DNA from: an uncultured Candidatus Saccharibacteria bacterium
GTDB lineage: Bacteria; Patescibacteriota; Minisyncoccia; Phycocordibacterales; UBA2100
Assembly (NCBI GenBank): GCA_964362175.1
Contig: CAYIDD010000003.1
Span: 22,430 to 76,915 of the forward strand
Reading direction: 5' to 3'
DNA: 54,486 nt
This document shows, piece by piece, positions 3,033 through 41,270 of the stretch. The notes under the pieces were generated by a model. That model was not told the origin of the DNA. It saw only the letters and a program-made list of their open reading frames with translations, and made no database searches. Numbering within the stretch: the first letter of the stretch is position 1; the number at the start of each line of letters is the position of its first letter. A program made the position numbers and the translations under genes.

Positions 3033-4984
3033 AGACCGGACGATACCTTGCAGGATCGGGAGCACTTATTGCGCTTGGCGTGGTCCCGCTTCTCGCATTC
3101 GCTCAACCGGTAGACACATCGCCACCGACCGTTCCAACAAATCTCAATCCGGTAAGCGTATCTTCTTCGGCCATCGACCTTTCGTGGGGCGCCTCTACCG
3201 ACAATATCGGCGTGCAAGGCTATAAGGTGTACCGATCCGATGTGCAGATCGCCACGACGACGAGTGCTGCGTATCAGGATACCGGCCTTGCCGCTGCAAC
3301 AAATTACATATACAACGTCGCGGCCTTTGATGCCGCGGGAAATACATCTGCAAAATCTTTACCCTCTTCCACAGCTACCCAATCCGGCACAGGTACGGGA
3401 GGGGGTACCGGTGGTGTTGTACCTGCCCCTGCTCCTACACCCGCGCCCGGTGCGGCAGCGGCGCCCTACGATTTCAAGCGGCAGGGGATTTTCGACTGCA
3501 ACCAGAATGGTGCATACGCGATGAGTGTCGGTGCGCTCTCGGCAACGGGCGGCGTGTACGTCCCTGTCGCCGACAACACGGTCGAGCTCAACACCGGTAC
3601 GCTTGTCTATAAAGAGTGCGTCTTGCGTGAGGTGATAAACCGAGAGAGGGAGGCGGCAATGGCCGCGTACGGAAAAAGAGCGGTCGTCGCCATACAGACC
3701 GGCCGCAATGGCAATCCACAATATGTTGTCGATCAGAACCAGGAGTTGCTCGCATACGGGAGCGATCCGACTATGCTCGACTTTCTCCAAGATGGCACGT
3801 TGCAAAATCTCAATCCGGCATTTCAGTCACAGGTAACGCGGGCTACGGCTCTCGGCTATGAAACGCGGACGCGCGCGAAAGAGAGTGTTCTCCGATGCCC
3901 CTACAAGGGTGATCTGAAGACGGCGCTGACCGATCCTACGCGATCATTCAGCTGGGAGGAATTCCGTGCGCTCTCCGACCCCGCGTGTAACCCGCTCGGC
4001 GCATACTATCTTGCAAGAGACTTAGCTGACGCCCGCATCGCCCGATGCCAAGAATACTTGCAACAACAATGGGATTGGGGCCGTGGTTACTACGCCGCTT
4101 CTACCGATCCCAACAATCCCTGCCGCGGAAAGATCGTCACGCCCGCGGTGACCATGCAGGCATCGTTCCAAAACATTATCGACAGCCCCGTCCGTCAGCT
4201 TGAGAGCGCCAACGACATCGGCCAGATGATCAACGCGCTTTATGCCGGCATGACAACACAGATCATTTCCGACAACCAAGGTCTTGCAGGACTCATGCAA
4301 AGCACAGGTGGACGAGCTTCATACCTCGATCAGGTCGCATCAGAGTCCGCTTCGGGTCTGCGCAACGCAGCGCTCAATGTCGCGATCCAGGTCCTCACCG
4401 CGGCGCGGCAGGTGGAAGCTGCATATTTCCAAGCAGCCAACGCGATCGGCGCGACGCTCACACAAACGATGGCGCAGTTGCGCAGCGCAGAGAATCAGTG
4501 TTGGAAACTTATCATTCCGAAAGTGTGCACGAGCGAATTGAGTGCGCAGAATGAATGCACGGACGGTGATGGAAACACGTACAAGGTATCCACCTCGACC
4601 GCCGGATTCGCAGAAGCAGTCATAACCGCCCAGATCACACCGCTCGCTGCTCCCGCAAGCAATAACATCCGCGTATCGCAAAACGCGCTCCGGCTCATTG
4701 ATCAGTTGATCGTGGGCGTTACCAACACCGCTTCACTCGATGCGCAGCGCCTCGCACTCCAACAGCTCGATTCACTCGTCGCACAGAAACTTCTGCATGT
4801 AAAACCCGATGTCGATGGCACGAACGGCATCGTGAAGCAGCTCGACAACGTGCAAACGACAATGACAACGCTCGTCACGAACACCGTGAAGGCGTGGGCA
4901 GATGACCCAAGTCCCTCCACCGGTTGGTGCAACGTCAATAATCCCGCGGTAGTGCAGGGATGGAAGGATAGGTGGAAGAAATAA
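3029..4984 (+). CDS. secreted protein with an N-terminal fibronectin type III domain
   Basis: Signal peptide ends ...LLAFAQP. An FN3-like segment follows (PPTVPTNL..SSSAIDLSWGASTDNIGVQGYKVYR...NYIYNVAAFDAAGNTS), then a G/T/P/A linker and a ~480-aa domain of unknown function. Confidence 0.7.
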   Translation: MKTGRYLAGSGALIALGVVPLLAFAQPVDTSPPTVPTNLNPVSVSSSAIDLSWGASTDNIGVQGYKVYRSDVQIATTTSAAYQDTGLAAATNYIYNVAAFDAAGNTSAKSLPSSTATQSGTGTGGGTGGVVPAPAPTPAPGAAAAPYDFKRQGIFDCNQNGAYAMSVGALSATGGVYVPVADNTVELNTGTLVYKECVLREVINREREAAMAAYGKRAVVAIQTGRNGNPQYVVDQNQELLAYGSDPTMLDFLQDGTLQNLNPAFQSQVTRATALGYETRTRAKESVLRCPYKGDLKTALTDPTRSFSWEEFRALSDPACNPLGAYYLARDLADARIARCQEYLQQQWDWGRGYYAASTDPNNPCRGKIVTPAVTMQASFQNIIDSPVRQLESANDIGQMINALYAGMTTQIISDNQGLAGLMQSTGGRASYLDQVASESASGLRNAALNVAIQVLTAARQVEAAYFQAANAIGATLTQTMAQLRSAENQCWKLIIPKVCTSELSAQNECTDGDGNTYKVSTSTAGFAEAVITAQITPLAAPASNNIRVSQNALRLIDQLIVGVTNTASLDAQRLALQQLDSLVAQKLLHVKPDVDGTNGIVKQLDNVQTTMTTLVTNTVKAWADDPSPSTGWCNVNNPAVVQGWKDRWKK

Positions 4985-4986
4985 AT

Positions 4987-7509
4987 ATGCCGGAAAAAAA
5001 AGACTTCTTAGTGTTCGTAGAAACCAGGGCTGGTCTGCTCCTAGGGGCACTCGCGGTTTTCTCGGTACTGTTTTTTGCTTCTCCGGGCGTTGTACATGCC
5101 GCCGCAGCGAGACCTTCTAGCGTAAGCGTTCAATGTTATACCAATTACACGTCGGGGTCTTTGGAGGGCTGTACTCCGGCAGAGATTGCAGCGGCAGATG
5201 CGGCAAACGGTGTTGCGCCCCAAAATGATGCGGCGAATAGCCAAGGTCAAGCAGCTCAACTCATGAATCAGGGTGCCAATGCAGCCAACACCGCTGTACC
5301 ATACCAGCCTTCGGCAGCTGGCACAGCCGACTGCACACCGGCCTGGAGAAATATATCAGCCATTTTTAGCCCCAGATGCTGGATGCGAATGCTCGGGGCG
5401 CTTGTCACGAGCGTCTTCATCTGGATAGGGGTCATGACCCTCGAGATCGCTGGGCTTTTATTCAATTATCTGCTCGATTTTACGGTCATCAAATTCAGTA
5501 CCGCCATATACACGAATATAAAGGACGCGGTCGAGATCGGCTGGACCGTATTCCGAGATCTTGCAAACATCCTCATTATCGGGATATTCACCTTTATCGC
5601 AATTGGTACGATTTTGGGGCTAGAAAATTACAACGCAAAGAAGATGGTCGCGAAAGTTCTGATTATTGCGGTACTGATCAACTTCAGCCTCCTTTTTACC
5701 AAAATGATTATCGACGCATCAAACTTCACCGCTTCTCAGTTCTACTACGCGGCCCTCGGCCAGGTAGCAAGATCGTCTGCGCAGGGCACGAGCGTCAACG
5801 TGGCCCCGACTGGCGGGAGTATGCAGCAAGCAAGCGCTGGTACCAAAGGCATATCGGGCCAGTTCATGCAGGCAATCGGCATTACGGGATTTGGAGATTC
5901 TTATAATCAAATACGCGCGCGGCAAGAGAAGAGCGATAACGGACTTGTGGGAATCGGTTTCGGACTTCTCTCGCTCATATATCTCCTTGGTATGGCCATA
6001 GTATTTTTCTATGGCTGCTTCCTTCTTATTTCGCGGGCCATACTGCTCATATTCCTCATGATCACATCGTCCATCGCATTTGCCTCGTACCTCATTCCCC
6101 AGTGGGAAACGAGTAGCTATGGGTGGAAGACGTGGAAGGATTCGCTCGTAAAGAGCGCCGTGTTCGCCCCACTCCTCATGCTTTTCATCTGGGTAACTCT
6201 CCTGCTCGCGCAAGGACTTACGAAAATAACCAGTGGCTCAACGATCGGTGGAATAGTAGAGGCGCCAGCGGAGAGTATTCCCGCCGCTTTCGGCTACTTC
6301 ATGATTCTCGGTATGATTTTTCTCTCCTTCAGGCTCTCTTCAAGCTTTGCGAGCAAGATCGCCGGGTTCAGCATGGCTTCAATCGCTCCCGCGCTCGGAC
6401 TTGCCGCTGGGGCACGTGTAGCGGGACTCTTGGGTCGCTATGGTCTCGGGATCCCCGGCGGCATGGCCGCTCGCCGCCTAACTGCACTTGGTAAAGATCA
6501 AGAGGGAAGAGGTAATGTCCTCACTGGGAAGGGAATCCAGCGTTTCGCCAACCGTCTCCAGAGTGCCACTGAAAAACGCGATTTCAATCTTATGAATACG
6601 AGCCTCGGTAAGCAGATCACTGCCACGGCAGGACTCAAAGGCAAGTGGACAGGTGCGACAAAATTCGGCGGTATAGAGGGCGTGACGAAAAAACAAGCTG
6701 AGGGGTACGCAAAAGACGCTGAAAAAATGACGTTCACTCACGAGGAGAAAAGTAAAATGTTTGAAGAAGCTGCAAAAAATGTCGCTTCGAGACCAGAAAA
6801 TAAGGAGGATGCGCAGCGTCTAAAGGACATGCATGAAACCGCAAAGAAAACGCTGGAGCAAAGCGAGAGAGAGGCGAAGGAAAATAAGGAGCGGCACAAG
6901 GAATCCCTCAAACAAGCGAAGGAGCACCACGACGCCACCGAGAGAGACGCCCAGAGTCAGATCAAGTCTATCGAGAAGAGTTCGCAAGATACAATTTCTC
7001 GACTCGAGCGTGATAAAGAATACACGCCGGAGGGGTCTACCGCTCGCGAGGAGTTTGAAAAACAGATCGTCGCAGCTCGCGCGGATTCCGCCAGTAAAAT
7101 GAACGCCGAAAAGAACCGCATCGAAACTGCGCGTGCAGAAGTTACGCGGCTAAACAAGTTGATCGAGACCGAGGATCCGCAGGTGGTCGCAGCGAGGAAA
7201 AAACTTTCGGAGGCGGAAAAAGAAAAAGAGGAGTTTGGTAAGAAAATAAAAGAAATGGCCGAGACAGAGGTGAGATTGAAGTATCCAAACTTGGATAAAA
7301 CAACCGAGGAGATCGCTGGAAAGTTGGCGAACACGCGTGCAACAAATCTATTCGGAGCCCTTCAGAGCGAGGCAAACGACCACTTGGCAAAACTCACGAG
7401 AGATAAAGTAAAAGTTACCAAGGAAGACAAGCGACTCAAGAGGGTTCTTGAGAACTCATTGAAAGATGGCTCTGAGGAAGAAAAGCCGAAGGCCGAGGAA
7501 ACGCACTAA
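4987..7509 (+). CDS. polytopic membrane protein, VirB6/TrbL-like, with a ~330-aa charged coiled-coil tail
   Basis: It has an N-terminal signal/anchor, at least 6 predicted TM helices (aa ~130-480), and a K/E-rich heptad-like C-terminus. It sits in a VirB3/VirB4 cluster. An alternative start lies at 4972. Confidence 0.55.
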   Translation: MPEKKDFLVFVETRAGLLLGALAVFSVLFFASPGVVHAAAARPSSVSVQCYTNYTSGSLEGCTPAEIAAADAANGVAPQNDAANSQGQAAQLMNQGANAANTAVPYQPSAAGTADCTPAWRNISAIFSPRCWMRMLGALVTSVFIWIGVMTLEIAGLLFNYLLDFTVIKFSTAIYTNIKDAVEIGWTVFRDLANILIIGIFTFIAIGTILGLENYNAKKMVAKVLIIAVLINFSLLFTKMIIDASNFTASQFYYAALGQVARSSAQGTSVNVAPTGGSMQQASAGTKGISGQFMQAIGITGFGDSYNQIRARQEKSDNGLVGIGFGLLSLIYLLGMAIVFFYGCFLLISRAILLIFLMITSSIAFASYLIPQWETSSYGWKTWKDSLVKSAVFAPLLMLFIWVTLLLAQGLTKITSGSTIGGIVEAPAESIPAAFGYFMILGMIFLSFRLSSSFASKIAGFSMASIAPALGLAAGARVAGLLGRYGLGIPGGMAARRLTALGKDQEGRGNVLTGKGIQRFANRLQSATEKRDFNLMNTSLGKQITATAGLKGKWTGATKFGGIEGVTKKQAEGYAKDAEKMTFTHEEKSKMFEEAAKNVASRPENKEDAQRLKDMHETAKKTLEQSEREAKENKERHKESLKQAKEHHDATERDAQSQIKSIEKSSQDTISRLERDKEYTPEGSTAREEFEKQIVAARADSASKMNAEKNRIETARAEVTRLNKLIETEDPQVVAARKKLSEAEKEKEEFGKKIKEMAETEVRLKYPNLDKTTEEIAGKLANTRATNLFGALQSEANDHLAKLTRDKVKVTKEDKRLKRVLENSLKDGSEEEKPKAEETH

Positions 7510-7522
7510 CCACCCACTATTT

Positions 7523-8083
7523 ATGATCGCAACCAACATTGATAATGGACTCGACCAGGCCCTAAAAGAGCGGTTCGCAAAATTGCCGAAGGTGGTACAG
7601 GATGCGATTATGTCGGCAGATGTGGAGAAGCACATGCGCGAACTCGCCGAGACGCATAAACTACACCTCGATCAGTGGCAAACACTCGAAAACGAAGTCA
7701 TGCTGGCACTTCTCGGCGTCCAGAAAGCGGAAGATTTGGAGAAAAACATCAAGAGCGAGGTCGGCGTGCCTAATGACATTGCGAAAGCACTCACCGAAAA
7801 CATCTCGAAAATCGTCTTCGAGCCGATTCGCGCGGAGCTGGAGCGGGAGCTGGAGCATCCCGAGGCAAAGGCAGCTGAGGTGAGCGGGGTGGAGGCGGCG
7901 CGTGCGCAAGTCCTCGGGGAGAACGCTCCTGCTACCCCCGCAGTTGCGCCAGCAACACCTCCTGCGGAACCGCCAACACAGAAAGTCGAGCGCGCGCCCG
8001 TCTCGACCGCCTACAAGGGCGGCGAAACCTCCGCCGTGCGCGTCGCAGTCGCAGACGACCCGTACAGAGAGCCTCCGGCATGA
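7523..8083 (+). CDS. hypothetical soluble protein with an A/P-rich tail
   Basis: The ATG at 7523 follows the previous stop. The product has helical composition and no recognisable motif. Confidence 0.5.
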   Translation: MIATNIDNGLDQALKERFAKLPKVVQDAIMSADVEKHMRELAETHKLHLDQWQTLENEVMLALLGVQKAEDLEKNIKSEVGVPNDIAKALTENISKIVFEPIRAELERELEHPEAKAAEVSGVEAARAQVLGENAPATPAVAPATPPAEPPTQKVERAPVSTAYKGGETSAVRVAVADDPYREPPA

Positions 8084-8128
8084 ACAGTGACGGTGTGTGG
8101 CCCGGCGCACTGATATAATGATGGGGCT

Positions 8129-8650
8129 ATGCAATTTCAGGTTCCGCAGTTCATTGAGGTCGAAGACAAGATCTTCGGCCCCCTCACATTCAAGCAATTC
8201 GTCTATATCGGTGGGGGCTTGGGCGCGTGCTACATCATGTGGCGCGTGTTGCCCATCTACCTTGCAGGCCCGCTCGTGGCCATAATCGGAGGTCTCACCG
8301 CTGGCTTGGCATTTTTCCAGCTCAACGGCCGCCCCTTCATCATCGGACTCGAGAACGGTTTCTTTTTTCTTCTCCGCAGCAAACTCTATCTGTGGAACAA
8401 TGCGCGGAAAAAGAACGTCACGCCACCAGTCATCGGAAAGGCGGTTGCCGGAGCGGCGCAAATATATGTGCCGAAACTCTCGGAGGGAAAGTTGCATGAA
8501 TTATCCTGGAGCCTGGACATAAAAGAGCGTGTCGCGCAGGGGATCGCCAGTGACGATGATCGGCGCCTGATGCGAACTCCGCAAGACCTTGTGGCGCCCA
8601 TTCGTACGCCGCAACAGGAACTGGCGCGACTCACCGGAGAAAACTCCTAA
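8129..8650 (+). CDS. PrgI-family / VirB3-like small membrane protein
   Basis: The N-terminus MQFQVPQFIEVEDKIFGPLTFKQFVYIGGG followed by two TM helices is the typical PrgI-family signature. A TATAAT-like hexamer lies at 8113-8118. Confidence 0.7.
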   Translation: MQFQVPQFIEVEDKIFGPLTFKQFVYIGGGLGACYIMWRVLPIYLAGPLVAIIGGLTAGLAFFQLNGRPFIIGLENGFFFLLRSKLYLWNNARKKNVTPPVIGKAVAGAAQIYVPKLSEGKLHELSWSLDIKERVAQGIASDDDRRLMRTPQDLVAPIRTPQQELARLTGENS

Positions 8651-8659
8651 CGTAATCGT

Positions 8660-9328
8660 ATGCCGACAAAAGAGAAAGATACGAGTCCCCGCGCGAGCGC
8701 CCGATCCACACAGGAGTTCCTCCCGATATCCGAGGTGCGTGACGGCGTTATCGTGCTTAAGGACGGCGGACTGCGCGCCATTCTGCTCGCATCCTCGCTC
8801 AACTTCGCACTGAAATCAGAGGATGAGCAGACGGCGTTCATCGTCCAGTTCCAGAATTTTCTCAACTCGCTCGACTTTTCCTGCCAGATATTCGTGCAAT
8901 CGCGCATGCTCGACATCCGCCCGTACATCGCAACGCTTGAAGTGGCGTATAAGGAACAGCTCGACGATCTCATGCGCATCCAGATCCGCGAATACATTCA
9001 GTTCATCAAGAGTTTCACTGAGGCCGCAAACATCATGACCAAAAATTTCTTCGTCGTCGTGCCGTACTCCCCCTCGGTCGGGATGACTGGCAAGGGGATA
9101 TCGTCGCTCCTGCCGTTCGGCAAGAAACAGACCACGACAGAAGAATCGAATAGAACGTTCGCGGAACAGGTATCCCAGCTTGAGCAGCGTGTTGCGATCG
9201 TACAGCAGGGTCTGGTGCGCACTGGCGTGCGCACTGTACAACTCGGGACCGAAGAAGCGATCGAGCTCATGTACAAGATGTTCAACCCCGGCGAAGAAGG
9301 GAAGCCGATGCCGGTCGAGCAGAAATAA
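8660..9328 (+). CDS. T4SS-associated protein resembling the N-terminal domain of Gram-positive VirB4-type ATPases
   Basis: FLPISEVRDGVIVLKDGGLRAILLASSLNFALKSEDEQ... resembles the start of Tn916 Orf16 / TcpF-type ATPases (recalled from memory). No Walker motifs are present. It lies directly upstream of virB4. Confidence 0.5.
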   Translation: MPTKEKDTSPRASARSTQEFLPISEVRDGVIVLKDGGLRAILLASSLNFALKSEDEQTAFIVQFQNFLNSLDFSCQIFVQSRMLDIRPYIATLEVAYKEQLDDLMRIQIREYIQFIKSFTEAANIMTKNFFVVVPYSPSVGMTGKGISSLLPFGKKQTTTEESNRTFAEQVSQLEQRVAIVQQGLVRTGVRTVQLGTEEAIELMYKMFNPGEEGKPMPVEQK

Positions 9329-32490: not shown

Positions 32491-32563
32491 CCGCCCATAG
32501 CTCAGTTGGTAGAGCGGCTCCCTTTTAAGGAGAAGGTCCCAGGTTCGAATCCTGGTGGGCGGA
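32491..32563 (+). tRNA. tRNA-Lys(UUU), no encoded CCA
   Basis: Acceptor ccgccca/tgggcgg, D-arm gctc-agttggta-gagc, anticodon loop cTTTTaa, T-arm ccagg-ttcgaat-cctgg, discriminator A. Confidence 0.9.
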
Positions 32564-34153
32564 CACGATAGGACTGGACTCGTATAACGAGTCGAAATGT
32601 CCTTGTTTACTTGCCTTTTTCGTAGGTTCTAACGGTTCGTGGAGGATAGCCACCTCTGCGGCTAGCTTTTTCATTGGTAGAAGCATATTCGCCCCATCGA
32701 ATATGACTTTTCTGTCTTTCAGGGTCAGGTTCGAACCGAGCGCGAGAAAGATGCCTCTACGTTCAACGGGTGTGCCGTTCTTGAATTTGTTGCGCGCATT
32801 GGTCACGAACGACAACGCGAATTCCATATTGTCAGCCCATGTGTTGAACCTGCCGTCTGTATCTGCAAGCGACTCGCTGAGACGCTCCTTTTCTTCCATG
32901 GCGGCTACTTTCTTCTCGCGTAGCTCGTCCTCGGTGATCTCGTTATTGGCTCGCATATCTATAAGGCGCTCGATTTTGAGAATCGTGGAGTTGTAAGCTC
33001 GCTGCTGTGCTTCAATCGCCGCACCGCGAGATCCACGATCCTTTTCGATCTCTTTTCGGATCCACTTCATGCCCCAAAGGTGGAATGACTCTGGGATCTC
33101 CAAGGACGCGAGCTCGGCATCAATCTGAGATTCAAGGACTTTTTCCTCTACCGCACCCTGCGAGCAAGGGATCTTGCTCCGCTTAGTGCAGTGATAGTAG
33201 ACATAGCGGTGAGTGTTTCCATTCTTTTGGGCCTTCTTCTTTTCCTCGGCAGTAATCGACATGGCACATTCGCCGCATTTCATCATGCCGGTAAATGCGA
33301 ATACGTGGGTTTGCGGGCGCGGCCTGCCTTTTCTACCGAGAAGAATCTGCACCCTGTCATACTCTGCTTCTGTAATCATCGCTTCATGCAACCCTTGATA
33401 CCAAGTCCCGCTGTTTCTCGGAAACTCGTATTTACCATAATAGAACGGGTTCGTAAAAAGATAATAGATATTGCTTCGCGACATCTTTCGTCCCTTGCGA
33501 GAACGCAGACCCCATTGCTCCGTTGCGATTTCTAGAAGCGAGGATGGATTGTGAACACCTCTCAACATTTCGTCCCACAGCTTGCGAACGATCTCGAAAC
33601 GCTCGGCATCCTTATATATCGTGTTGCTTCCCTTGGCGTTCGTCTTGGTATTGAGATAGCCAATCGGCGGCTGTACCGGATACCAACCCATCTCTGCTTT
33701 CTTCTTGAGGCCTCTTGTGACGTTGACCGCGAGATCGCGCGAGTATTGATTGGCCATACCGAACTCGACACTCATCAGCAGCACGTTGTCTTGGGGGTAG
33801 TAGCTGCGCTCATATGATCGGATGTGTCGAATCGCGCTCATCTGTAGCATGTTGATTACTCGTCCGCCGTCCACCATATTTCGCGCGAGGCGGTCAAGTT
33901 TCCAACACAAAATTCCGTCTGCCTCGCCTCTCTCCATCTGGTCGAGCATATCCTTGAAGACAGGTCGTCCGAGTGCTTTTGCAGACTTTGATTCTTCGAA
34001 GACGCGGACGATGCGCAGATTTTCTAGCCGTGCGATTTTCTCAAGTTCACTTACTTGAGATTCGATGGAAAGCACCTGGCGGTCTTCCGACTCAGTAGAT
34101 TTCCGGGCATAGAGAAAATACCTGGGCGACTTACTACTTTTCATGTTCATCAT
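32525..34153 (-). CDS. large serine recombinase (integrase)
   Basis: Resolvase-type N-terminus YARKSTESEDRQVLSIESQ, a recombinase domain, a zinc ribbon (CGECAMS...YYHCTKR) and a coiled-coil region. The last 12 codons plus the stop run antisense through tRNA-Lys. Confidence 0.9.
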   Translation of the reverse strand: MMNMKSSKSPRYFLYARKSTESEDRQVLSIESQVSELEKIARLENLRIVRVFEESKSAKALGRPVFKDMLDQMERGEADGILCWKLDRLARNMVDGGRVINMLQMSAIRHIRSYERSYYPQDNVLLMSVEFGMANQYSRDLAVNVTRGLKKKAEMGWYPVQPPIGYLNTKTNAKGSNTIYKDAERFEIVRKLWDEMLRGVHNPSSLLEIATEQWGLRSRKGRKMSRSNIYYLFTNPFYYGKYEFPRNSGTWYQGLHEAMITEAEYDRVQILLGRKGRPRPQTHVFAFTGMMKCGECAMSITAEEKKKAQKNGNTHRYVYYHCTKRSKIPCSQGAVEEKVLESQIDAELASLEIPESFHLWGMKWIRKEIEKDRGSRGAAIEAQQRAYNSTILKIERLIDMRANNEITEDELREKKVAAMEEKERLSESLADTDGRFNTWADNMEFALSFVTNARNKFKNGTPVERRGIFLALGSNLTLKDRKVIFDGANMLLPMKKLAAEVAILHEPLEPTKKASKQGHFDSLYESSPIVSAHQDSNLGPSP

Positions 34154-34230: not shown

Positions 34231-36138
34231 TTATTCTGCTGGTGGATCTCCCAGCCAGTTTTCGTCGGGTAAGAGATGGTAGAGGTTTTGATTCGGCGCG
34301 CCTCCCGTACTCTTGATTGTTAGCCCCTTCGACACCGCTTCTTTCCGTGTTTTCATTTCGGCATAGCCCTGGCTCACTAGGTCTCTAAGCGCAGACCTGA
34401 CGGTTGAGGTACCTCCGACTCCAAGAGAGACCAGGTCTTCAACAGAAAGCCACGTATCTTCTGCGCCGAGCGCATCAGTAACTCTTTCGGTCACTTTGCT
34501 TTCTTCGCGTTCCTCGTCCTTGTGGGGGCGATAGATAAACCCCCAAGGTGATGAACTCACAAGCAGTTCAAATGGATTGATTTTCTCATCAGCTTTCAGC
34601 TTTTGCTGTCGAGCGACTATAAACGTCTCTCCCTTTTCACTTTGAGCGTAGAGCGACAGGTGACCGTGCACAGCCGCATTGATCGCGCTGCTCCCTCTAG
34701 TTTCCTCGCCATCGTTTTTATTCCCACCAAATGGAGGCTTTTTTCTGTTGTGATGCGTGAAGATTACAGTGAGACCTTTTTGCGTGAATTTCTTCAACTG
34801 GTCGATTACCGACTGCATTTCCTGCGAGCTGTTTTCCTCCTTGTCGTGTACGCTCCGCAAAGAATCGAAAATAATCATCGTGATGCCTTTTGATTCGGCT
34901 TCAGCAAGCAGTTTGGTCACGTATGCGTCCGTCAGCTTTATTCCTTCGAGTACATGAAAGAAGATGGGCAAACCAACGAACTCATCAGCAAGCATCTTCA
35001 TTCTGTTTTGGATGAGACGCTCGCTATCCTCCTCGTTCACGACCATCACCAATTGCTTCGTTGTCTCGAATGTCCCCCAAAGCATCGATCCCTTCGCCGT
35101 CGCGAGCGCGATTTCCAAGATCACCCAGCTTTTGTAGTGATTCGGAGGGGCGCTAATCATATTGATCGTGCCTGACTCGAACAGTTTTTCGACAGCCCAC
35201 TGTGCCGCGGGAAACTCCCGCGTCATGAGCTCATCGAGAGAAAATGCCGGCCGGAATGCTCTCCCTTCCTGAGGTTCGGTGTGAGGTATTCGGGGATTTG
35301 CTCGCACCCGGCCCCACGCTGACTCGAATTGTTTGTCCGCTTCTCCGCCCGCCGCGTGGAAGTTATCTCCGATCTCGAAGTTCTTATCGATGACAGCGCG
35401 ATACATCGTGTGGGCAATGTCCCGCGAGCCAAGGTCGCCAAACTGGTTGCATATTTTCAGGGCGAGACGGAAAGACTTCAAATGTCTTTCCCCCTGCTTC
35501 GCATACAGAACTTCTTCCATTGGAAGAAAAGTCTTTTTGTGTCCGATGATATCATGCTGCGGAAGCAGTCCTGCGAAGTCTGATTCGCTGTACCTATTGT
35601 CAGTCACGTTGCCGAGCTTCATTTCTTTTCCTGAGCCGTCCTTCCAGTACTTTCCAAAAGGGATGCGGAGAATCCGAGCGATGTCTCGCGCCGCCTTGTC
35701 GCCGTCGAAAGCTTGAGTGAGAGCGTCTTGAATACGCTCGTACTCGCGCTTCTGGTCGTCCGTCGGGTTTATGATTGGCTCTTTCAGAATCCAGTACCCG
35801 TGAACCCCGCGCCCCGTCTCGACCATAGCGGTGAAAGGGATGCCTTTTTCTGCTGCCAACAACGCTGCCTCGTTCTTAATATCGCGCACGGGTTTATCTG
35901 GGTTATCGATTTCAACAAAGTGTGCATTGAGCGAGGTAACGAACTCGATTTTTCGGTGGCGATTTCGAGGGAAATTCGCGAATCCGTTCACCGTGAAATA
36001 CGCGCCCCATCGGCCATAGTTATTCAACTCAATCACATCTCGCAGTTCACTCTTGTGACGGGGAGGGTGTTCCTTTTTCTCATCAAGACTAACGAACACA
36101 GGGTCACGAAACATCTTCAGGAATTCTTCTTGCGTCAT
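34231..36138 (-). CDS. primase-polymerase (AEP) fused to a RecA-like/AAA_25 ATPase and a C-terminal wHTH
   Basis: AEP motifs HFVEIDNPD, TGRGVHGYW and ARILRIPF. A P-loop-like SAPPNHYKSW is followed by VMVVNEEDS and IIFDSLRS. ATG at 36138; the ORF-track start at 36159 is GTG. Confidence 0.75.
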   Translation of the reverse strand: MTQEEFLKMFRDPVFVSLDEKKEHPPRHKSELRDVIELNNYGRWGAYFTVNGFANFPRNRHRKIEFVTSLNAHFVEIDNPDKPVRDIKNEAALLAAEKGIPFTAMVETGRGVHGYWILKEPIINPTDDQKREYERIQDALTQAFDGDKAARDIARILRIPFGKYWKDGSGKEMKLGNVTDNRYSESDFAGLLPQHDIIGHKKTFLPMEEVLYAKQGERHLKSFRLALKICNQFGDLGSRDIAHTMYRAVIDKNFEIGDNFHAAGGEADKQFESAWGRVRANPRIPHTEPQEGRAFRPAFSLDELMTREFPAAQWAVEKLFESGTINMISAPPNHYKSWVILEIALATAKGSMLWGTFETTKQLVMVVNEEDSERLIQNRMKMLADEFVGLPIFFHVLEGIKLTDAYVTKLLAEAESKGITMIIFDSLRSVHDKEENSSQEMQSVIDQLKKFTQKGLTVIFTHHNRKKPPFGGNKNDGEETRGSSAINAAVHGHLSLYAQSEKGETFIVARQQKLKADEKINPFELLVSSSPWGFIYRPHKDEEREESKVTERVTDALGAEDTWLSVEDLVSLGVGGTSTVRSALRDLVSQGYAEMKTRKEAVSKGLTIKSTGGAPNQNLYHLLPDENWLGDPPAE

Positions 36139-36140
36139 GA

Positions 36141-36281
36141 TTATTTTTCGCCGATGCACACGGCACGATAAAGATTGATAAGTGCCTGCGCGCGAGCAGC
36201 GGCTTCTTCAAAAGAAAGTTCCACGCCGTACCGTTCTTGGTACAGCTTTCTGAACTCCTCGATTGCATCTCGCGGAAGCAT
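36141..36281 (-). CDS. small helical protein (46 aa), possibly coupled to the primase gene
   Basis: Hand translation gives MLPRDAIEEFRKLYQERYGVELSFEEAAARAQALINLYRAVCIGEK*. The stop lies 2 nt before the primase ATG. It is too short for the ORF track. Confidence 0.35.
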   Translation of the reverse strand: MLPRDAIEEFRKLYQERYGVELSFEEAAARAQALINLYRAVCIGEK

Positions 36282-36326: not shown

Positions 36327-37001
36327 CTAGTAATTGCGGCAGAGTGCCTTATTTCTCCATGAGATTAGTCGGTCTTTTGTGCCGTACTTTTTTTGCACTC
36401 GTTCGTTTAGGTTGTACATGGCATCTCGTACAGGGGGCATATGTTTCTTGACGTCTAGACGTCGCGTATCGAGCCCGGTCATGTACGCCGCGACGTTCTC
36501 CCAGGAGATCGCCGCCCCAACAGGTTCGCGAAAAATGACTTCGCAAAGATCAGCTTCATTCTTGTGCGGCGGGAGCGGACAAGGGGTACCGTTTACGAGC
36601 AGAGAAGATGTCCTCGCGTCAAAAGATATTTCGCAATCTACAAGGCGTACCTTTTCTATGGGAATGTTCAGGCTCTCTCGAATCTTTTTTGCGAGGGTTT
36701 TGAAGTCCAACGAGACCTCAAGTCTAGCGAGTGTGTGATATTTTACGTCTAATTCTGGCGGCTCAATCGGGCGCTCCTTGTTCCTGTAGTGGAGCACCCA
36801 GAACTTCTTTATCGTGACGGGGTGGTTCGCAGCCAGGGAGCGAAGCGCATCGCCCAGCTCTTCTAGCCGAATATGGTTCTGTTGCAGGTCGTTGAGAGTG
36901 ATTGCAATATCTTGAAAGCCCGAAGGGTTTTTTACGCCAAAAGTGAACCTGTATTCCAAGACATCTAGAATCTTTTCCATAAGGATAGCGGGGGCATCCA
37001 T
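36327..37001 (-). CDS. island protein with a C-terminal OmpR/PhoB-type winged-helix DNA-binding domain
   Basis: LLVNGTPCPLPPHKNEADLCEVIFREPVGAAISWENVAAYM...RLISWRNKALCRN matches the trans_reg_C pattern by eye. Confidence 0.5.
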   Translation of the reverse strand: MDAPAILMEKILDVLEYRFTFGVKNPSGFQDIAITLNDLQQNHIRLEELGDALRSLAANHPVTIKKFWVLHYRNKERPIEPPELDVKYHTLARLEVSLDFKTLAKKIRESLNIPIEKVRLVDCEISFDARTSSLLVNGTPCPLPPHKNEADLCEVIFREPVGAAISWENVAAYMTGLDTRRLDVKKHMPPVRDAMYNLNERVQKKYGTKDRLISWRNKALCRNY

Positions 37002-37070: not shown

Positions 37071-37155
37071 CCACGGCCTCCCCGGAAGCTAGTTTTGGCC
37101 TAGTTTAGCTGGTTTATCACAGAGTCCATCCGGAGAGCCTCCGGGGCTGCCGTGG
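37071..37155. repeat. GC-rich imperfect inverted repeat (14/16 bp arms) in the island control region
   Basis: ccacggcctccccgga (37071-37086) pairs with tccggggctgccgtgg (37140-37155). The interior has a ctagttt direct repeat and a ccgga/tccgg hairpin. Confidence 0.55.
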
Positions 37156-37177
37156 TGAGCCACGGGACGTTCCGGGC

Positions 37178-37315
37178 TTGATAGAACAAGCAATATCAGG
37201 TTCTTTAGGTTAAAAACCTAAGCATTTTTGATTAACTTGATATTTAATCAATCTTTTTGGAGCCTGATATAACAGCTCATTATCAGTTCCCGTTGATAGA
37301 ACAGCGCGATATCAG
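37178..37315. promoter_or_regulatory. direct repeats (operator- or iteron-like) in the divergent island control region
   Basis: ttgatagaaca-agca-atatcag (37178-37199) and ttgatagaaca-gcgcg-atatcag (37293-37315). An inverted half-site ctgatat lies at 37264-37270 and a palindrome taggttaaaaaccta at 37206-37220. Confidence 0.5.
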
Positions 37316-37575
37316 CAGCCATTCCTATATCTCCCAGAAAGGGCTAATATGGCTGGACACACCCAATATGGGAGCGACAGCTCCAAAGACCTAAACTTCG
37401 GCGACGAGGCATGGTCTAAAAGTCGGATAAGGCGCAGAGAACCCGTCATGTGGTTGCCTTATCCGCCGTATCGGGAAACCGGTGCGTTCGCGCAAGCGAA
37501 GACCCGTGGCGGGCTTTGTGCTTTCGAGAAGCATGGGCTCGCTAGGTTTATCCGTTAGAAATCTAGCAGTCCGGT

Positions 37576-37905
37576 ATGACATTCATCGGTGCATTTTTGG
37601 CCGCGTTGGTATTGATATATATTTTGAGCGTCTTCACGTGGCGAGGATTACTTTTGGCCGGATTCTGTGCCCTAATTTTTATGGCTTTGGGTATCGGCCC
37701 CGGTATCTTCGTCTTGGCATTACTAGCCGCACTCGCCTTCGTCTGCTACGCCGTCGTGTACTTCATCAAATGGCTTTTTGCTGAAAAGCCTGTCGAGCGA
37801 ACACAGGAAGAGAAAGATAAGATGGCCGAAGTGATGGCCGGTCTAGAGCTCGAACATGGAATTGGAAGAGATTCTAGGGAGTACTCTCGACCAGAAGACG
37901 AATAA
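37576..37905 (+). CDS. small 3-TM membrane protein with an acidic tail
   Basis: Three hydrophobic helices in the first ~70 aa, followed by a charged C-terminus. Confidence 0.55.
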   Translation: MTFIGAFLAALVLIYILSVFTWRGLLLAGFCALIFMALGIGPGIFVLALLAALAFVCYAVVYFIKWLFAEKPVERTQEEKDKMAEVMAGLELEHGIGRDSREYSRPEDE

Positions 37906-37970
37906 AAAGGCTCGCGCAACAACGAGGGGAAGCCGTTGATATTTCATGAAAACAGGAATACTCTGCCCCT

Positions 37971-39620
37971 ATGGCAGAGAATCCCGCAGGCTTTACTTTC
38001 AGTCTCTCCCTGAGTGTCCTTAATCACTTGGGTCGGAATCTATATCGTAGCTTCACCACAGTTCTCGGCGAAGCCATTTCAAACTCTTGGGATGCTGACG
38101 CAAAGGATGTTTGGGTATACATCGACAAAAAGCAGAACAATCTAATCGTCAAAGACAACGGCGTAGGGATGGATGCACTCGATTTTCAAAACAAGTTCCT
38201 CAAGATCGGCTACTCCAAGCGCAAAGATGGCAAAGCCGTATCGGCAAAGAAAAGGCCGTTCATCGGACGCAAAGGAATCGGGAAACTCGCACTACTTTCT
38301 TGTGCCGCTCGCATAACGGTAATTTCAAAAGTAAAAGGTGGTGATTATGTCGGTGGCGTGATCGACAATACGGGCCTCGACAAGGCAATCACGGACGACA
38401 TGTCTCCTCAGGAATATTCTCTCGAAGGGGCGGACATGGCGGCACTGAAGAAGTACACCGACGACCATAAGCACGGAACAATCATTCGATTCGAAGGCAT
38501 ACACGAGGGCATCAAACCGCACTTTGGATTTTTGAATAAGGTCGTCGCGCTCTATTTCCGATTTTCGCTCATAGACGGCTCTTTCAAGATCCACATAAAC
38601 GACGAAACAATCACCCACAGACATCTCGAAGAACTGGCGAAGAAGACGCAGTTCGTATGGCACACGCAAGGACTCAAAGACCCATTTCTCAGCAGAGGAC
38701 TCAAGAACGCGAAAGAAAAGAGAACCATAACGCTTGGGAAGGGAGTGCGCGGCTTCATCGCGTCCGTTGAGACGCCTAAAGACCTGAGCATCTACTCCAC
38801 CGGAGAACGAGTGAGCATTGACTTGTTCGTAAACGGCAGATTACGGGAAACCGACATCGTAAAACACCTCTCTATTGCGAAAGTCGCGGAGAATTATCTA
38901 TACGGTCAGATACACATCGACGACCTCGATGGGTCTGTCGATCGCTTTACTACAAGTCGCGAAGGAATTATTGCTGACGATCAGAAATATGAGGCGCATC
39001 TGAAGACCTTCAGAAAAGCTCTCGATAAAATCATTCGCGAATGGGACGTTCTTCGTCGCAAATACAGACTCGACGGGAATCCCGAAGACCCCATCTTATC
39101 GAAAAGGGAACGGAAATCAGGTGAGCTCTATAACGTGGTCGCCGGTGAATACAACCCGCCAAAGAAAGGGAGGAAGCCTAATCTGGTTGACGGCTGGGTC
39201 AACGACCTGGCGGAGGACGCACGTTTCAATTTCGGTTCGTATGCTGAATGCTTTATGTCGGAGAACCTGATCAGGAAGCTTGCGCAGAAAAAGAAAATCT
39301 CGCTGTCGAAAGAAGCGAAAGAAGAAGTCGCCAAGTGGAAGAAAGTTGAGAAAGAAATGAAGGGCAAAGGCAATCTCAGTATCGGTATAAGACAAGCGAG
39401 TTCCGATCTGGGATACTTGTCGATGAGCCACCTCGCGAATCTTGTCGACAAGAAAGATCCCGCAAAAGAAGCGTGTCTGGCTCGTGACGCGAACGAATAC
39501 CGCCCGATTAGAGACGCTCTTGCGCACACGGCACTTTTGACCGACGTTGCAAAGAAGAAGCTCACGAGCGTATTCGAGAATGTCAGGGGGCGTGTTCAGA
39601 CTCTGATTGCGGGCAAATAA
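37971..39620 (+). CDS. GHKL (MORC/HATPase_c_3-type) ATPase with a C-terminal HEPN-like Rx4H domain
   Basis: N-box LGEAISNSWDA, G1 VKDNGVGMD, G2 GRKGIGKLALLS and GTIIRF. The C-terminal YRPIRDALAHT contains R514-x4-H519 (nt 39510-39527). Confidence 0.7.
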   Translation: MAENPAGFTFSLSLSVLNHLGRNLYRSFTTVLGEAISNSWDADAKDVWVYIDKKQNNLIVKDNGVGMDALDFQNKFLKIGYSKRKDGKAVSAKKRPFIGRKGIGKLALLSCAARITVISKVKGGDYVGGVIDNTGLDKAITDDMSPQEYSLEGADMAALKKYTDDHKHGTIIRFEGIHEGIKPHFGFLNKVVALYFRFSLIDGSFKIHINDETITHRHLEELAKKTQFVWHTQGLKDPFLSRGLKNAKEKRTITLGKGVRGFIASVETPKDLSIYSTGERVSIDLFVNGRLRETDIVKHLSIAKVAENYLYGQIHIDDLDGSVDRFTTSREGIIADDQKYEAHLKTFRKALDKIIREWDVLRRKYRLDGNPEDPILSKRERKSGELYNVVAGEYNPPKKGRKPNLVDGWVNDLAEDARFNFGSYAECFMSENLIRKLAQKKKISLSKEAKEEVAKWKKVEKEMKGKGNLSIGIRQASSDLGYLSMSHLANLVDKKDPAKEACLARDANEYRPIRDALAHTALLTDVAKKKLTSVFENVRGRVQTLIAGK

Positions 39621-39625
39621 CGACT

Positions 39626-40144
39626 ATGCGTAAATACAACAGCAAGGACGCCTATAATTTCTACAAGAAGTTTATTTACAACGAGGAGAAACAGTCTCTC
39701 TTTAAGCAGCACAACTTGCCGATAGCTGGCAGCATCCCATCAATCGACTGGGAGCTTTTCGGTGCCATCCTCACGGGAGATGACCATAAAACCAGGTACG
39801 GCTCGGACTTGGAACACCACGAGATCAAGTCATCGGTGGGAGTATCGAGTTTTGAGTATCAATATCACTTGCACGGCGGTATTCAAAAGTTGGCCGACGA
39901 CATGAAAGTAGACCACATATTTATTTCCTACAGTCCCGACTACAAGAATATTGAGGTTCGGATGATTGAAGGCGCCGCCCTAAAAGAGAAGTTTGAAAGC
40001 TGGCTTCCAGGATTGAAGGCCAATTACGAAGGGGCGAACCGCAAACAAAGATACCGCCGTAGCATTGCCTACGGGATAGTGAAAAGAATCGGAAAAACTA
40101 TAATGAAAGTTGAGGGCGGCGAGCTGACGGGACTTCTAGAGTAG
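39626..40144 (+). CDS. putative restriction endonuclease (weak PD-(D/E)xK signature)
   Basis: TGDD(51-53)...GSDLEHHEIK(61-68) could supply a D...ExK site. It starts 5 nt after the GHKL gene and is convergent with, and overlaps by 47 nt, the methyltransferase gene. Confidence 0.4.
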   Translation: MRKYNSKDAYNFYKKFIYNEEKQSLFKQHNLPIAGSIPSIDWELFGAILTGDDHKTRYGSDLEHHEIKSSVGVSSFEYQYHLHGGIQKLADDMKVDHIFISYSPDYKNIEVRMIEGAALKEKFESWLPGLKANYEGANRKQRYRRSIAYGIVKRIGKTIMKVEGGELTGLLE

Positions 40145-41270
40145 GTTGTAGGAACGGGTTCAGATAGTGCTTTCCTATCCATTCTAGAGCAGGGACACAC
40201 ACGGCGTCGCCAAAACCAAATAGGACCTGGTTCAGTGAGAGCGTCGAATCAATTTTGAAGTCGCCAGCGCCCATTAGACGCGCTGCCTCCTTTTCATTTA
40301 TGAGCCGCGCATCGAATCGATTGCGTCCCACTCGGACTATGATTTGCCGCGCGCTCCCGCCTTTAGGGGTACGAAGACAGCCAGCAATTCCGTCTGTCCT
40401 GAGTTCGGCGGTAGATTGAGAAGTGCCGTCGCGCAAGCGCATGCGCCTGAAAGCCGAGTAGTATGAGTATTTCCTTTGTGCCATCTGGCTATCGATCAAT
40501 TCGCGATGATGGCTGTGCATCTGGTCGTATAGGTATTGTGACCTATCCTCAGTCCACCACTGTGCTGTGTAATCTACGATGTCTTCCAATACCGAGTTCC
40601 GCTTTGGTAAGTTTGGCAGCTGTTGGAAGAACCACCGGAGATCGCGGTTCTTGACGATGAAGTCGATTATCTTTTGCGGCCTAGCGTCAGAGCTTCTCAT
40701 TTGATACTCCTGCATGAGGTCGTCGCGGTCTACTTTCCCGATAACACTTCCGTGCACGCCCACCATAAATAGCCGTACTCTGCTCTGTGGTACGAAGTTT
40801 GACGCATCTACTCTTAGCAAGTCTACGTGATAGCCGAGATCGTTGAGGGTTCTGAGTACTAGGCGAAGGTCGTTTCCGTCGTCAGATGTGAGAAGTCCCT
40901 CTACGTTCTCCAATAATACGAAAGGGGGTGACGTTTTCATCTCATTTAAAATCCTAGCGAAGTGCCAAAAAGCGGATGACTCGCCTTTGTGAATACCTCC
41001 TCGCGCGCCTGCGACAGATAGATCTGTGCATGGGAACGAAGCATGCGCCAACATCACGCACGGCACATTCGCGCCCTGTGTCTGTGCGATATCCTCCGTG
41101 AGATAGTGACCTTCGCCGAAATGATTGTTGTAAGCTGCCGCCTTGTCCTTGTCGTAATCAAGTGCATACACAGTTTTCCAACCGGCACGCTCAAGCCCCA
41201 TGCTGACTAGACCGATCCCTGCGAAGAAGTCGGCTACTGTCCTGCTCTCAAAATTAAGCATCCGACGCAT
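40098..41270 (-). CDS. DNA (cytosine-5)-methyltransferase
   Basis: Motif I DFFAGIGL, motif IV SFPCTDLS, motif VI LLENV, motif VIII QSRVRLF, motif X-like GFGDAV. Confidence 0.92.
   Translation of the reverse strand: MRRMLNFESRTVADFFAGIGLVSMGLERAGWKTVYALDYDKDKAAAYNNHFGEGHYLTEDIAQTQGANVPCVMLAHASFPCTDLSVAGARGGIHKGESSAFWHFARILNEMKTSPPFVLLENVEGLLTSDDGNDLRLVLRTLNDLGYHVDLLRVDASNFVPQSRVRLFMVGVHGSVIGKVDRDDLMQEYQMRSSDARPQKIIDFIVKNRDLRWFFQQLPNLPKRNSVLEDIVDYTAQWWTEDRSQYLYDQMHSHHRELIDSQMAQRKYSYYSAFRRMRLRDGTSQSTAELRTDGIAGCLRTPKGGSARQIIVRVGRNRFDARLINEKEAARLMGAGDFKIDSTLSLNQVLFGFGDAVCVPALEWIGKHYLNPFLQPTLEVPSARRPQLSL

Follow-up and report, generated by a model that had tools for sequence, protein, structure and literature searches.

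The window analysed here is a 54,486-nucleotide (nt) stretch of an uncultured Candidatus Saccharibacteria bacterium (GenBank assembly GCA_964362175.1, contig CAYIDD010000003.1, positions 22,430 to 76,915 of the forward strand), and its positions 37576–41270 hold a block of four genes. An initial annotation, made from the sequence alone, had read this block as a candidate unnamed defence system that combines a membrane protein, a GHKL ATPase fused to a HEPN ribonuclease domain, a small nuclease and a C5 cytosine DNA methyltransferase. Rather than a new four-gene defence system, the block is an ordinary type II restriction-modification (R-M) pair plus a member of a GHKL-effector family, placed together in an unusual stack. 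Our preferred reading, to which we give a probability of about 60%, is that the block comprises a pair of independent modules of restriction type, both dependent on a single C5 methyltransferase and both carried in a small integrated mobile element. The open reading frames (ORFs) and features of the block, in window coordinates, are as follows.

37576–37905, + strand: 109-amino-acid (aa) hydrophobic ORF called from the sequence, here the three-transmembrane (3-TM) ORF
37971–39620, + strand: 549-aa protein, predicted to be of paraMORC type, with a GHKL ATPase, an S5/transducer and a helical C-terminal domain
37992–39077, + strand: GHKL + S5 module of the 549-aa protein (aa 8–369), common to BbrUII/HgiDII-family restriction enzymes
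39183–39611, + strand: helical C-terminal domain of the 549-aa protein (aa 405–547), all-helical in its AlphaFold (AF2) model, a HEPN-like candidate effector
39510–39527, + strand: R514-D-A-L-A-H519 (Rx4H) at the end of helix 503–519
39626–40144, + strand: 172-aa ORF, predicted PvuII-fold type II restriction endonuclease
40098–40144: 47-nt convergent 3′ overlap of the endonuclease and methyltransferase genes, from the sequence
40098–41270, − strand: 390-aa C5 cytosine DNA methyltransferase, the predicted cognate of the 172-aa endonuclease

Re-deriving these ORFs from the sequence returned those of the initial annotation, along with its 5-nt gap between the 549-aa and 172-aa ORFs and its 47-nt convergent overlap; the 3-TM and 549-aa ORFs, on the same strand, are 65 nt apart. 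Such tight packing on one strand, with one methyltransferase in common, is what would favour a single integrated four-gene system that couples DNA restriction to membrane-linked abortive infection, and the arrangement is intact in three sibling contigs, from a 0.1 µm groundwater fraction, that carry the same island. These contigs are, however, 100% identical and therefore one population; their groundwater source would fit a CPR host. Two censuses of related loci bear on the same question: one of 80 GHKL loci from named genomes (51–63% identity; CPR groups, Nitrospirota, Bacteroidota, Planctomycetota, Chloroflexi, Thaumarchaeota, Woesearchaeota, Iainarchaeota and Thermoplasmata), and one of 61 metagenome loci of the 172-aa gene, of which 48 had room downstream and 39 had room upstream. 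The 172-aa gene was found at none of the 80 GHKL loci, the 3-TM gene at none of the 80 and none of the 61, and a GHKL gene upstream of the 172-aa gene at none of the 39. The GHKL and 172-aa genes never occur together elsewhere among these loci, the window is the only sampled locus with both, and the sole homologue of the 3-TM gene lies in another context. Because its genes are not co-conserved elsewhere, the proposed four-gene architecture falls, and we regard a single integrated system of this kind as very improbable.

With respect to the 172-aa protein, its family of about 209 members has no match in Pfam, PADLOC, NCBIfam or PDB sequences, and assignment was made through structure prediction. 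Specifically, the 12 best PDB matches of its AF2 model (predicted local distance difference test, pLDDT, 92.5) are all PvuII endonuclease (Foldseek E 2.5e-5, TM 0.53–0.58, ~150 columns), followed by DpnI, NhoI and RecU. On this modelled fold the protein is best described as a PD-(D/E)xK nuclease of the PvuII type, as the initial annotation had supposed in more general terms. A weak hhalign alignment (E 0.077), made with a PvuII sequence that was validated against PDB, places E66-I-K68-S on the PvuII catalytic E68-L-K70-S; a HMMER search of PDB with the family profile did not reach PvuII. Six residues (D61, E66, K68, E77, Q79 and H81) are invariant in 33 homologous sequences, and D61, E66 and K68 are the predicted catalytic residues. 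Of the active site first proposed, a 'GDD…E-I-K' arrangement, the E66/K68 part is thus retained, being invariant and aligned with PvuII, and the GDD part is lost: the acidic pair varies, GSQ or GSK standing in its place in several homologues, and D61 is the more likely catalytic Asp.

The resemblance to PvuII type IIP systems extends beyond the fold, which covers nearly the whole 172-aa length. The 172-aa gene likewise adjoins its putative cognate methyltransferase, and some relatives have a helix-turn-helix (HTH) controller gene. Differences are also evident: sequence homology at the level of HMMER is lacking, the spacing from the Asp to the ExK motif is shorter (D61...E66 vs D58...E68), and the partner belongs to the C5 class, whereas M.PvuII methylates cytosine at N4.

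The partner methyltransferase is readily recognised, with a full-length match of the 390-aa protein to PF00145 (Pfam E 6e-47) and to the PADLOC model MTase_II (3e-101). A methyltransferase of this type lies directly downstream of the 172-aa gene at 38 of the 48 census loci with room there, and the 390-aa protein is therefore assigned, by sequence and position, as the cognate partner of the 172-aa endonuclease. In this respect the type II-like pair and the convergent Dcm-type enzyme of the initial annotation both hold. The 3′ ends of such convergent pairs overlap in 35 of 38 loci by a median of 35 nt, so that the window's 47 nt is typical; the overlap is a family trait that probably couples expression through convergent transcription. 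At six loci of two 172-aa homologues the next gene is again a convergent, overlapping C5 methyltransferase of ~395 aa, there is no GHKL gene, and in some of the six an HTH controller gene lies upstream. The window methyltransferase is 61–68% identical to the partners of the 172-aa gene in two islands (L013 and L017). Its recognition site was not inferable, as just the catalytic core matches M.HhaI and M.HaeIII.

Two observations on these genes may be recorded here. In the sibling contigs, gene callers make the methyltransferase 387 aa long, with a start 9 nt downstream of that of the longest ORF (390 aa), the difference being window positions 41262–41270. The island with the closest 172-aa/methyltransferase pair (L017) also encodes, at 7344–9306, a patatin + SMODS (CBASS-like) pair and, directly downstream of its methyltransferase, a LexA-like S24 peptidase; the same LexA-like gene has this place in L013–L018.

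The second enzyme of the block, the 549-aa protein, opens with a GHKL domain that Pfam recognises as HATPase_c_3 (PF13589, E 4.8e-20), and in 30 homologues residues E34, N38, D62, G64, G66, G99, G102, G104, G169 and T170 are invariant. Judged by these residues, Bergerat-fold ATP-binding motifs I–IV are intact, which bears out the complete ATPase noted initially. Residues 8–369 match the NCBIfam model NF050001, 'BbrUII/HgiDII family restriction enzyme' (E 1.4e-81, model positions 1–368 of 659), with a score of 275 bits that lies below the curated cutoff of 550 bits, and the same GHKL + S5 part matches two PADLOC REase_II models (E 7.7e-33 and 5.8e-31). The AF2 model of the whole protein (pLDDT 74.6) is alpha/beta to about residue 330 and all-helical over 338–547. 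In Foldseek searches its front part aligns, over 400–470 columns, with the N and middle domains of Hsp90/TRAP1 and with the ATPase modules of MORC2 and SMCHD1 (E about 1e-10), and an S5-fold transducer follows the GHKL domain. On this predicted structure we class the ATPase as MORC/Hsp90-like, of the paraMORC-type GHKL+S5 kind.

Several narrower identities were considered for the 549-aa protein and rejected. MzaB scored 23–29 bits against a cutoff of 850, on the GHKL domain only, and MutL proper was likewise dismissed. Full membership of the BbrUII/HgiDII family is precluded by the score below cutoff and by a C-terminus without an SduA_C-like PD-(D/E)xK domain, and an identity as Shedu by the lack of any Pfam match to SduA_C / DUF4263, a domain that occurs in paralogues only. 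PADLOC offers REase_II models that match the GHKL part only and no model that matches the PvuII-like endonuclease; automated defence annotation will therefore probably call the locus 'RM type II' with the GHKL gene wrongly taken as the endonuclease.

The family to which the 549-aa protein belongs has more than 4600 homologues, 51–76% identical, in bacterial and archaeal phyla; the best 120 of these, from a wide range of phyla, show 59–76% full-length identity. Its neighbourhood is highly regular. A C5 methyltransferase lies within 400 nt of the GHKL gene at 75 of the 80 genome loci, which almost invariably is the gene immediately upstream, on the same strand and at a gap of −7 to +30 nt, and a Vsr homologue is present at 42 of the 80, mostly directly downstream. 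On these counts the usual cassette is Dcm – GHKL protein – (Vsr). In three further contexts (P0067, P0018 and P0089) the C5 methyltransferase is the sole constant neighbour, with Vsr or Mrr sometimes present, and an annotated example of the cassette is found on Paracoccus plasmid pBM153, where a 'DNA cytosine methyltransferase' is followed by an 'ATP-binding protein'. The 172-aa gene occupies the place that Vsr has in the canonical cassette; an identity of its product as Vsr was rejected, as there is no PF03852 match in Pfam. In one Candidatus Falkowbacteria locus (L003, CP066698) a full-model Rfam match to a group I intron (84.7 bits, positions 4791–5020) lies just upstream of an Mrr – GHKL – methyltransferase cluster, outside called rRNA and tRNA genes.

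The relatives closest to the window depart from this pattern. In the clade that is 70–76% identical to the 549-aa protein (L006, L008, L010 and L245), the GHKL gene is convergent with a methyltransferase of the window type and there is no 172-aa gene; at these four independent loci the two genes are separated by 9, 1 and 8 nt or, in one case, overlap by 41 nt. The window methyltransferase shares 70–72% identity with the methyltransferases that adjoin the closest GHKL relatives (L006, L008 and L010), and ~25%, in the catalytic core only, with the ~350-aa methyltransferases of the canonical cassette. In the window clade, then, the methyltransferase partner has been switched, and because the GHKL gene is convergent with, and abuts or overlaps, a window-type methyltransferase without a 172-aa gene, its product stands in the position of the PvuII-like endonuclease. 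A protein of the 549-aa type has here taken over from a classical endonuclease next to one and the same lineage of methyltransferase, and the window retains the state in which both are present.

These neighbourhoods also raise the question of whether the 549-aa protein is a defence effector at all. It could instead be a MutL-like accessory of very-short-patch repair that stimulates Vsr nicking at T:G mismatches, which arise from deamination of 5-methylcytosine, the ATPase travelling with mobile Dcm cassettes. E. coli MutL stimulates Vsr, and the canonical order, with Vsr at 42 loci and mostly directly downstream, is what such a helper would call for, as are its independence of the methyltransferase family and its housekeeping-like conservation, which suit a factor that acts regardless of sequence. 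The MutL/VSR parallel was noted by Iyer et al. (PMC2292703). However, Vsr is missing from about half of the loci and from every member of the window clade, and tblastn with two Vsr proteins found none anywhere in the window. Among paralogues with the same module are true restriction enzymes, and the effectors that they carry are nucleases or TIR domains; the GHKL gene of the window clade takes the endonuclease position, and an accessory role would leave an invariant, catalytic-looking Rx4H domain without a function. We therefore consider a repair accessory improbable, and return to the two-module reading and to the domain on which its second half turns.

The initial annotation took the C-terminal domain for HEPN on account of its Rx4H motif at 39510–39527. 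R514 and H519, together with E431, N432 and R435, do not vary among 30 sequences drawn from many phyla, and further invariant polar residues are D416, N420, E460, K464, N468, R474, D493, R505 and D506. The AF2 model places E431, N432 and R435 on a helix of residues 422–440, which is followed by an insert (441–502), a helix (503–519) that ends in R514...H519, a loop and a final helix (525–547). In the published definition of HEPN domains, an Rx4-6H motif closes core helix 3 and extends into the loop that leads to helix 4, helix 2 bears a conserved acidic or polar residue, and an insert separates helices 2 and 3 (PMC3710099). The motif and the predicted helix topology agree with this definition, and on these grounds the domain is probably HEPN-like.

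Profile and structure searches weigh against this assignment. The confidence of the AF2 model is moderate in the C-terminal region (pLDDT 53–84). None of 19 domain sequences matched the HEPN clan of Pfam, including PF09509 (Ymh), with E up to 10, and the domain has no match in NCBIfam (including TIGR02391) or to PDB sequences by HMM; Ymh was accordingly rejected as its identity, neither PF09509 nor TIGR02391 matching even at that threshold. PADLOC gives a Cas13a fragment model at E 0.003 in 1 of the 19 and weak PDC-M34B matches in 5. Full-length Foldseek searches of PDB and BFVD were taken over by GHKL, Hsp90, RIIA and topoisomerase matches, with no HEPN protein among them. A profile of the region (aa 372–549, 19 sequences) gave no significant assignment against PHROGs, and a HMMER search with it of 1.84 billion representatives returned the domain's own family only (242 matches), so that no transitive link to other families emerged. 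Of the HEPN claim, then, the motif stands, invariant and in a fitting topology, and a match to a HEPN family or fold was not found.

The combination of GHKL and HEPN in R-M neighbourhoods, which the initial annotation did not recognise, in one polypeptide with a type II-like R-M pair and a membrane protein, from any characterised system, has in fact been catalogued. Orlowski and Bujnicki described in 2008 five REBASE endonuclease subfamilies with N-terminal GHKL domains, among them R.HgiDII and R.NmeAIP, the latter with Hypoth_Ymh as its C-terminus (PMC2441816). In the same year Iyer, Abhiman and Aravind, whose paper the initial annotation had cited correctly, defined paraMORC1-5, GHKL + S5 proteins that share R-M operons with Dcm and Vsr and in some cases end in a nuclease or TIR domain (PMC2292703). 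Anantharaman et al. (2013) then classed Ymh as HEPN, described paraMORC proteins fused to it at R-M loci, and suggested that these are analogous to PrrC/RloC (PMC3710099). The 549-aa protein shares with R.NmeAIP and the paraMORC-Ymh fusions an N-terminal GHKL/paraMORC part, a C-terminal helical Rx4-6H domain and an R-M neighbourhood; it differs in that its C-terminal domain is a separate domain family, found in this protein family only. PrrC and RloC offer a possible functional analogy, as NTPase-regulated HEPN-type RNases that act in R-M loci as a second line of defence (PMC3710099), but they have ABC-type ATPases and a type I association, and no sequence relationship between them and the 549-aa protein was found. 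Our literature search found no paper that characterises the 549-aa family.

Viral paralogues provide further insight into what the C-terminus may do. At 80 loci on IMG/VR contigs we found 8 full-length family members and ~65 paralogues of 650–690 aa that share GHKL + S5 only, with an adjacent C5 methyltransferase at 74 of the 80; in nearly all cases this methyltransferase is 46–57% identical to the canonical ~350-aa partners. The 650–690-aa paralogues are true NF050001 members (729–778 bits), and their C-termini show a D...ExK signature ('D-I-A-Y...E-M-K') with weak similarity to SduA_C (Shedu). On two IMG/VR contigs (L229 and L230) a 686-aa GHKL-S5 paralogue ends in TIR_2 (Pfam E 1.2e-6) and has no directly adjacent methyltransferase; this architecture corresponds to paraMORC4 of Iyer et al. 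2008 (PMC2292703). Because the same ATPase module carries a PD-(D/E)xK or a TIR domain in paralogues, the C-terminus looks like a swappable effector (DNase, TIR or Rx4H) on one GHKL-S5 engine.

Two better-characterised groups frame this comparison. BbrUII/HgiDII enzymes (NF050001; paraMORC3-like GHKL + PD-(D/E)xK) have a homologous GHKL + S5 module and an adjacent C5 methyltransferase, and the methyltransferases beside true members are those 46–57% identical to the canonical partners of the window's family; they end, however, in a ~290-aa Shedu-like nuclease domain, and the window protein in an unrelated ~180-aa helical Rx4H domain. VcSduA, a Shedu type I-D protein (GHKL + DUF4263), is likewise a single chain in which a clamp-like middle domain stands between a GHKL ATPase and an effector at the C-terminus, and anti-phage activity that needs the ATPase and nuclease residues has been shown experimentally for this paraMORC3 protein (PMC12137116). 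In contrast to the window protein, which lacks a PD-(D/E)xK domain and whose family is nearly always coupled to Dcm, VcSduA works without a methyltransferase and has a PD-(D/E)xK DNase as its effector.

With such relatives, the 549-aa protein might itself be a DNA-cleaving, ATP-dependent restriction endonuclease whose C-terminus is a novel DNase or DNA-recognition domain and not a HEPN RNase, in which case the window would hold two DNA-level restriction enzymes for one methyltransferase. The homology of the N-terminal 370 aa to BbrUII/HgiDII enzymes, with PADLOC REase_II on the same region, argues in this direction, as does the gene's place in the endonuclease slot beside methyltransferases. 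Paralogues have a true DNase domain at the C-terminal position, the invariant polar residues far exceed what a minimal HEPN site needs, and no HEPN profile matches. The predicted C-terminus is nonetheless all-helical, lacking the beta-sheet cores of PD-(D/E)xK, HNH, GIY-YIG or PLD nucleases, its Rx4H motif and the position of that motif fit HEPN, and near-constancy across different methyltransferase families speaks against a domain that reads sequence. We hold DNA cleavage by the 549-aa protein to be possible, if rather doubtful.

The observed folds, motifs, neighbourhood statistics and modular architecture are the basis for the reading we prefer, that of two independent restriction-type modules; methylation gating, clamp behaviour and the substrate of the C-terminal domain are inferred. 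In the first module, of type IIP, the 172-aa PvuII-fold endonuclease would cut unmethylated target sites and the convergent methyltransferase would protect host DNA. In the second, the GHKL ATPase and S5 transducer of the 549-aa protein would, like related ATPases, dimerise on ATP into a DNA clamp, and the protein would serve as a second effector, ATP-driven, gated by methylation and restrained by the same methyltransferase. Its output would most likely be cleavage of nucleic acid through R514/H519, the substrate being RNA if the domain is a true HEPN.

Beyond the search results for the C-terminal domain, several facts count against this reading. The three-gene stack is known from one population only, and any cooperation of the two modules is conjectural. 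GHKL proteins of this family are found beside either of two methyltransferase families, which share ~25% identity and have target-recognition regions that do not align, and how so conserved a protein could be gated by different methylation patterns is unexplained. Strong conservation is also unusual for a toxin in an arms race. Moreover, the 549-aa family is of a computationally known kind, and its roles are predicted ones.

A more specific version of the second module would make GHKL-S5-Rx4H proteins a class of methylation-gated restriction in which the clamp fires a HEPN-type RNase and the outcome is abortive infection, not DNA cutting. In that case the clamp would detect DNA without the mark of its partner Dcm, perhaps borrowing target recognition from the methyltransferase; such borrowing, which is speculation, would be why one conserved protein can serve unrelated methyltransferase families. 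In the window, such a protein would back a PvuII-like endonuclease keyed to the same mark, and a phage that inhibits the endonuclease alone would not escape this two-tier defence. We consider this version unlikely, and offer it as a tentative suggestion.

In terms of wider significance, the 549-aa family is widespread and strongly conserved, its more than 4600 members including proteins 51–63% identical from Thaumarchaeota to bacteria of the candidate phyla radiation (CPR). Neither Pfam nor NCBIfam nor PADLOC recognises its C-terminal domain, and pipelines label its members "ATP-binding protein" or "DNA mismatch repair protein". A modular GHKL-S5 series beside Dcm raises the question of how a MORC-like ATPase might couple DNA methylation state to an effector, which in turn bears on the reading of epigenetic marks by eukaryotic MORCs.

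The remaining gene of the block, the 109-aa ORF, is strongly hydrophobic over residues 1–65, consistent with 2–3 transmembrane segments. A single homologue was found among 5.8 billion proteins (74–80% identical), on a 1.7-kb contig whose neighbouring genes are unrelated to the island. Conservation is best in the ORF's own reading frame, and it is therefore probably a real small gene; the sibling contigs, being 100% identical, give no signal from the ratio of nonsynonymous to synonymous substitution rates (dN/dS). By sequence comparison it appears to be an unrelated passenger, an orphan outside any conserved module. The initial annotation had it heading the operon, which is right as to position and no further; a LOOT RNA lies upstream of it.

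The block is cargo of an ~8.8 kb island, with a serine recombinase and a primase, that is inserted beside tRNA-Lys, and the view that it rides on a mobile element was well founded. The other features of the island are as follows.

32491–32564, + strand: tRNA-Lys(UUU), left edge of the low-GC island (ARAGORN; Rfam tRNA 71.6 bits)
32525–34153, − strand: large serine recombinase, the island integrase (Pfam Resolvase 3.1e-21, Recombinase, Zn_ribbon_recom)
34231–36159, − strand: primase/helicase-like replication protein with a RepB-primase N-terminal domain and AAA_25 (Pfam AAA_25 1.4e-24, RepB_primase 3e-4)
36327–37001, − strand: 224-aa island protein with a possible winged-helix domain (weak MCM4_WHD match below cutoff)
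37388–37500, + strand: LOOT RNA motif (Rfam RF03000; full model, 69.9 bits vs gathering score 46.4, E 3.6e-11)

GC content is 0.48–0.53 across 32–41 kb and 0.55–0.58 in the flanks, and the right boundary of the island was placed by this shift alone. Over 40 nt (32525–32564) the recombinase ORF, on the opposite strand, runs with its 3′ end into the 3′ half of the tRNA-Lys gene, which suggests integration of the element into that gene with restoration of the gene's end. A search for attachment sites found neither another copy of the 3′ end of tRNA-Lys nor direct repeats in the flanks, and no displaced tRNA-Lys fragment was found at the other end of the island. The 224-aa protein had no match in PADLOC, NCBIfam or PHROG. 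Promoter and terminator scans gave matches no commoner than in shuffled sequence, and a single-sequence genome scan and a scan of viral contigs using the island primase found nothing.

On the strand of the operon, the LOOT RNA precedes the 3-TM ORF by 76 nt and overlaps a mechanically called 69-aa ORF at 37349–37558. It occurs in only four independent islands among ~240 fetched loci (2 Mb), all with the window-type methyltransferase lineage; the copies outside the window are at L006 4119–4233 (+), L008 3227–3344 (−) and L017 10122–10244 (+), and compensatory changes are present in its stems. The RNA tracks the mobile-element backbone. Between the 224-aa gene and the LOOT RNA, the interval 37071–37315 contains three TTGATAGAACA-like 11-mers (37178, 37264 and 37293), two of which are followed by GC(A/G)ATATCAG, and a 20-nt inverted repeat (37071–37090 / 37136–37155). 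These elements could be iterons or operators for the island primase or for a regulator.

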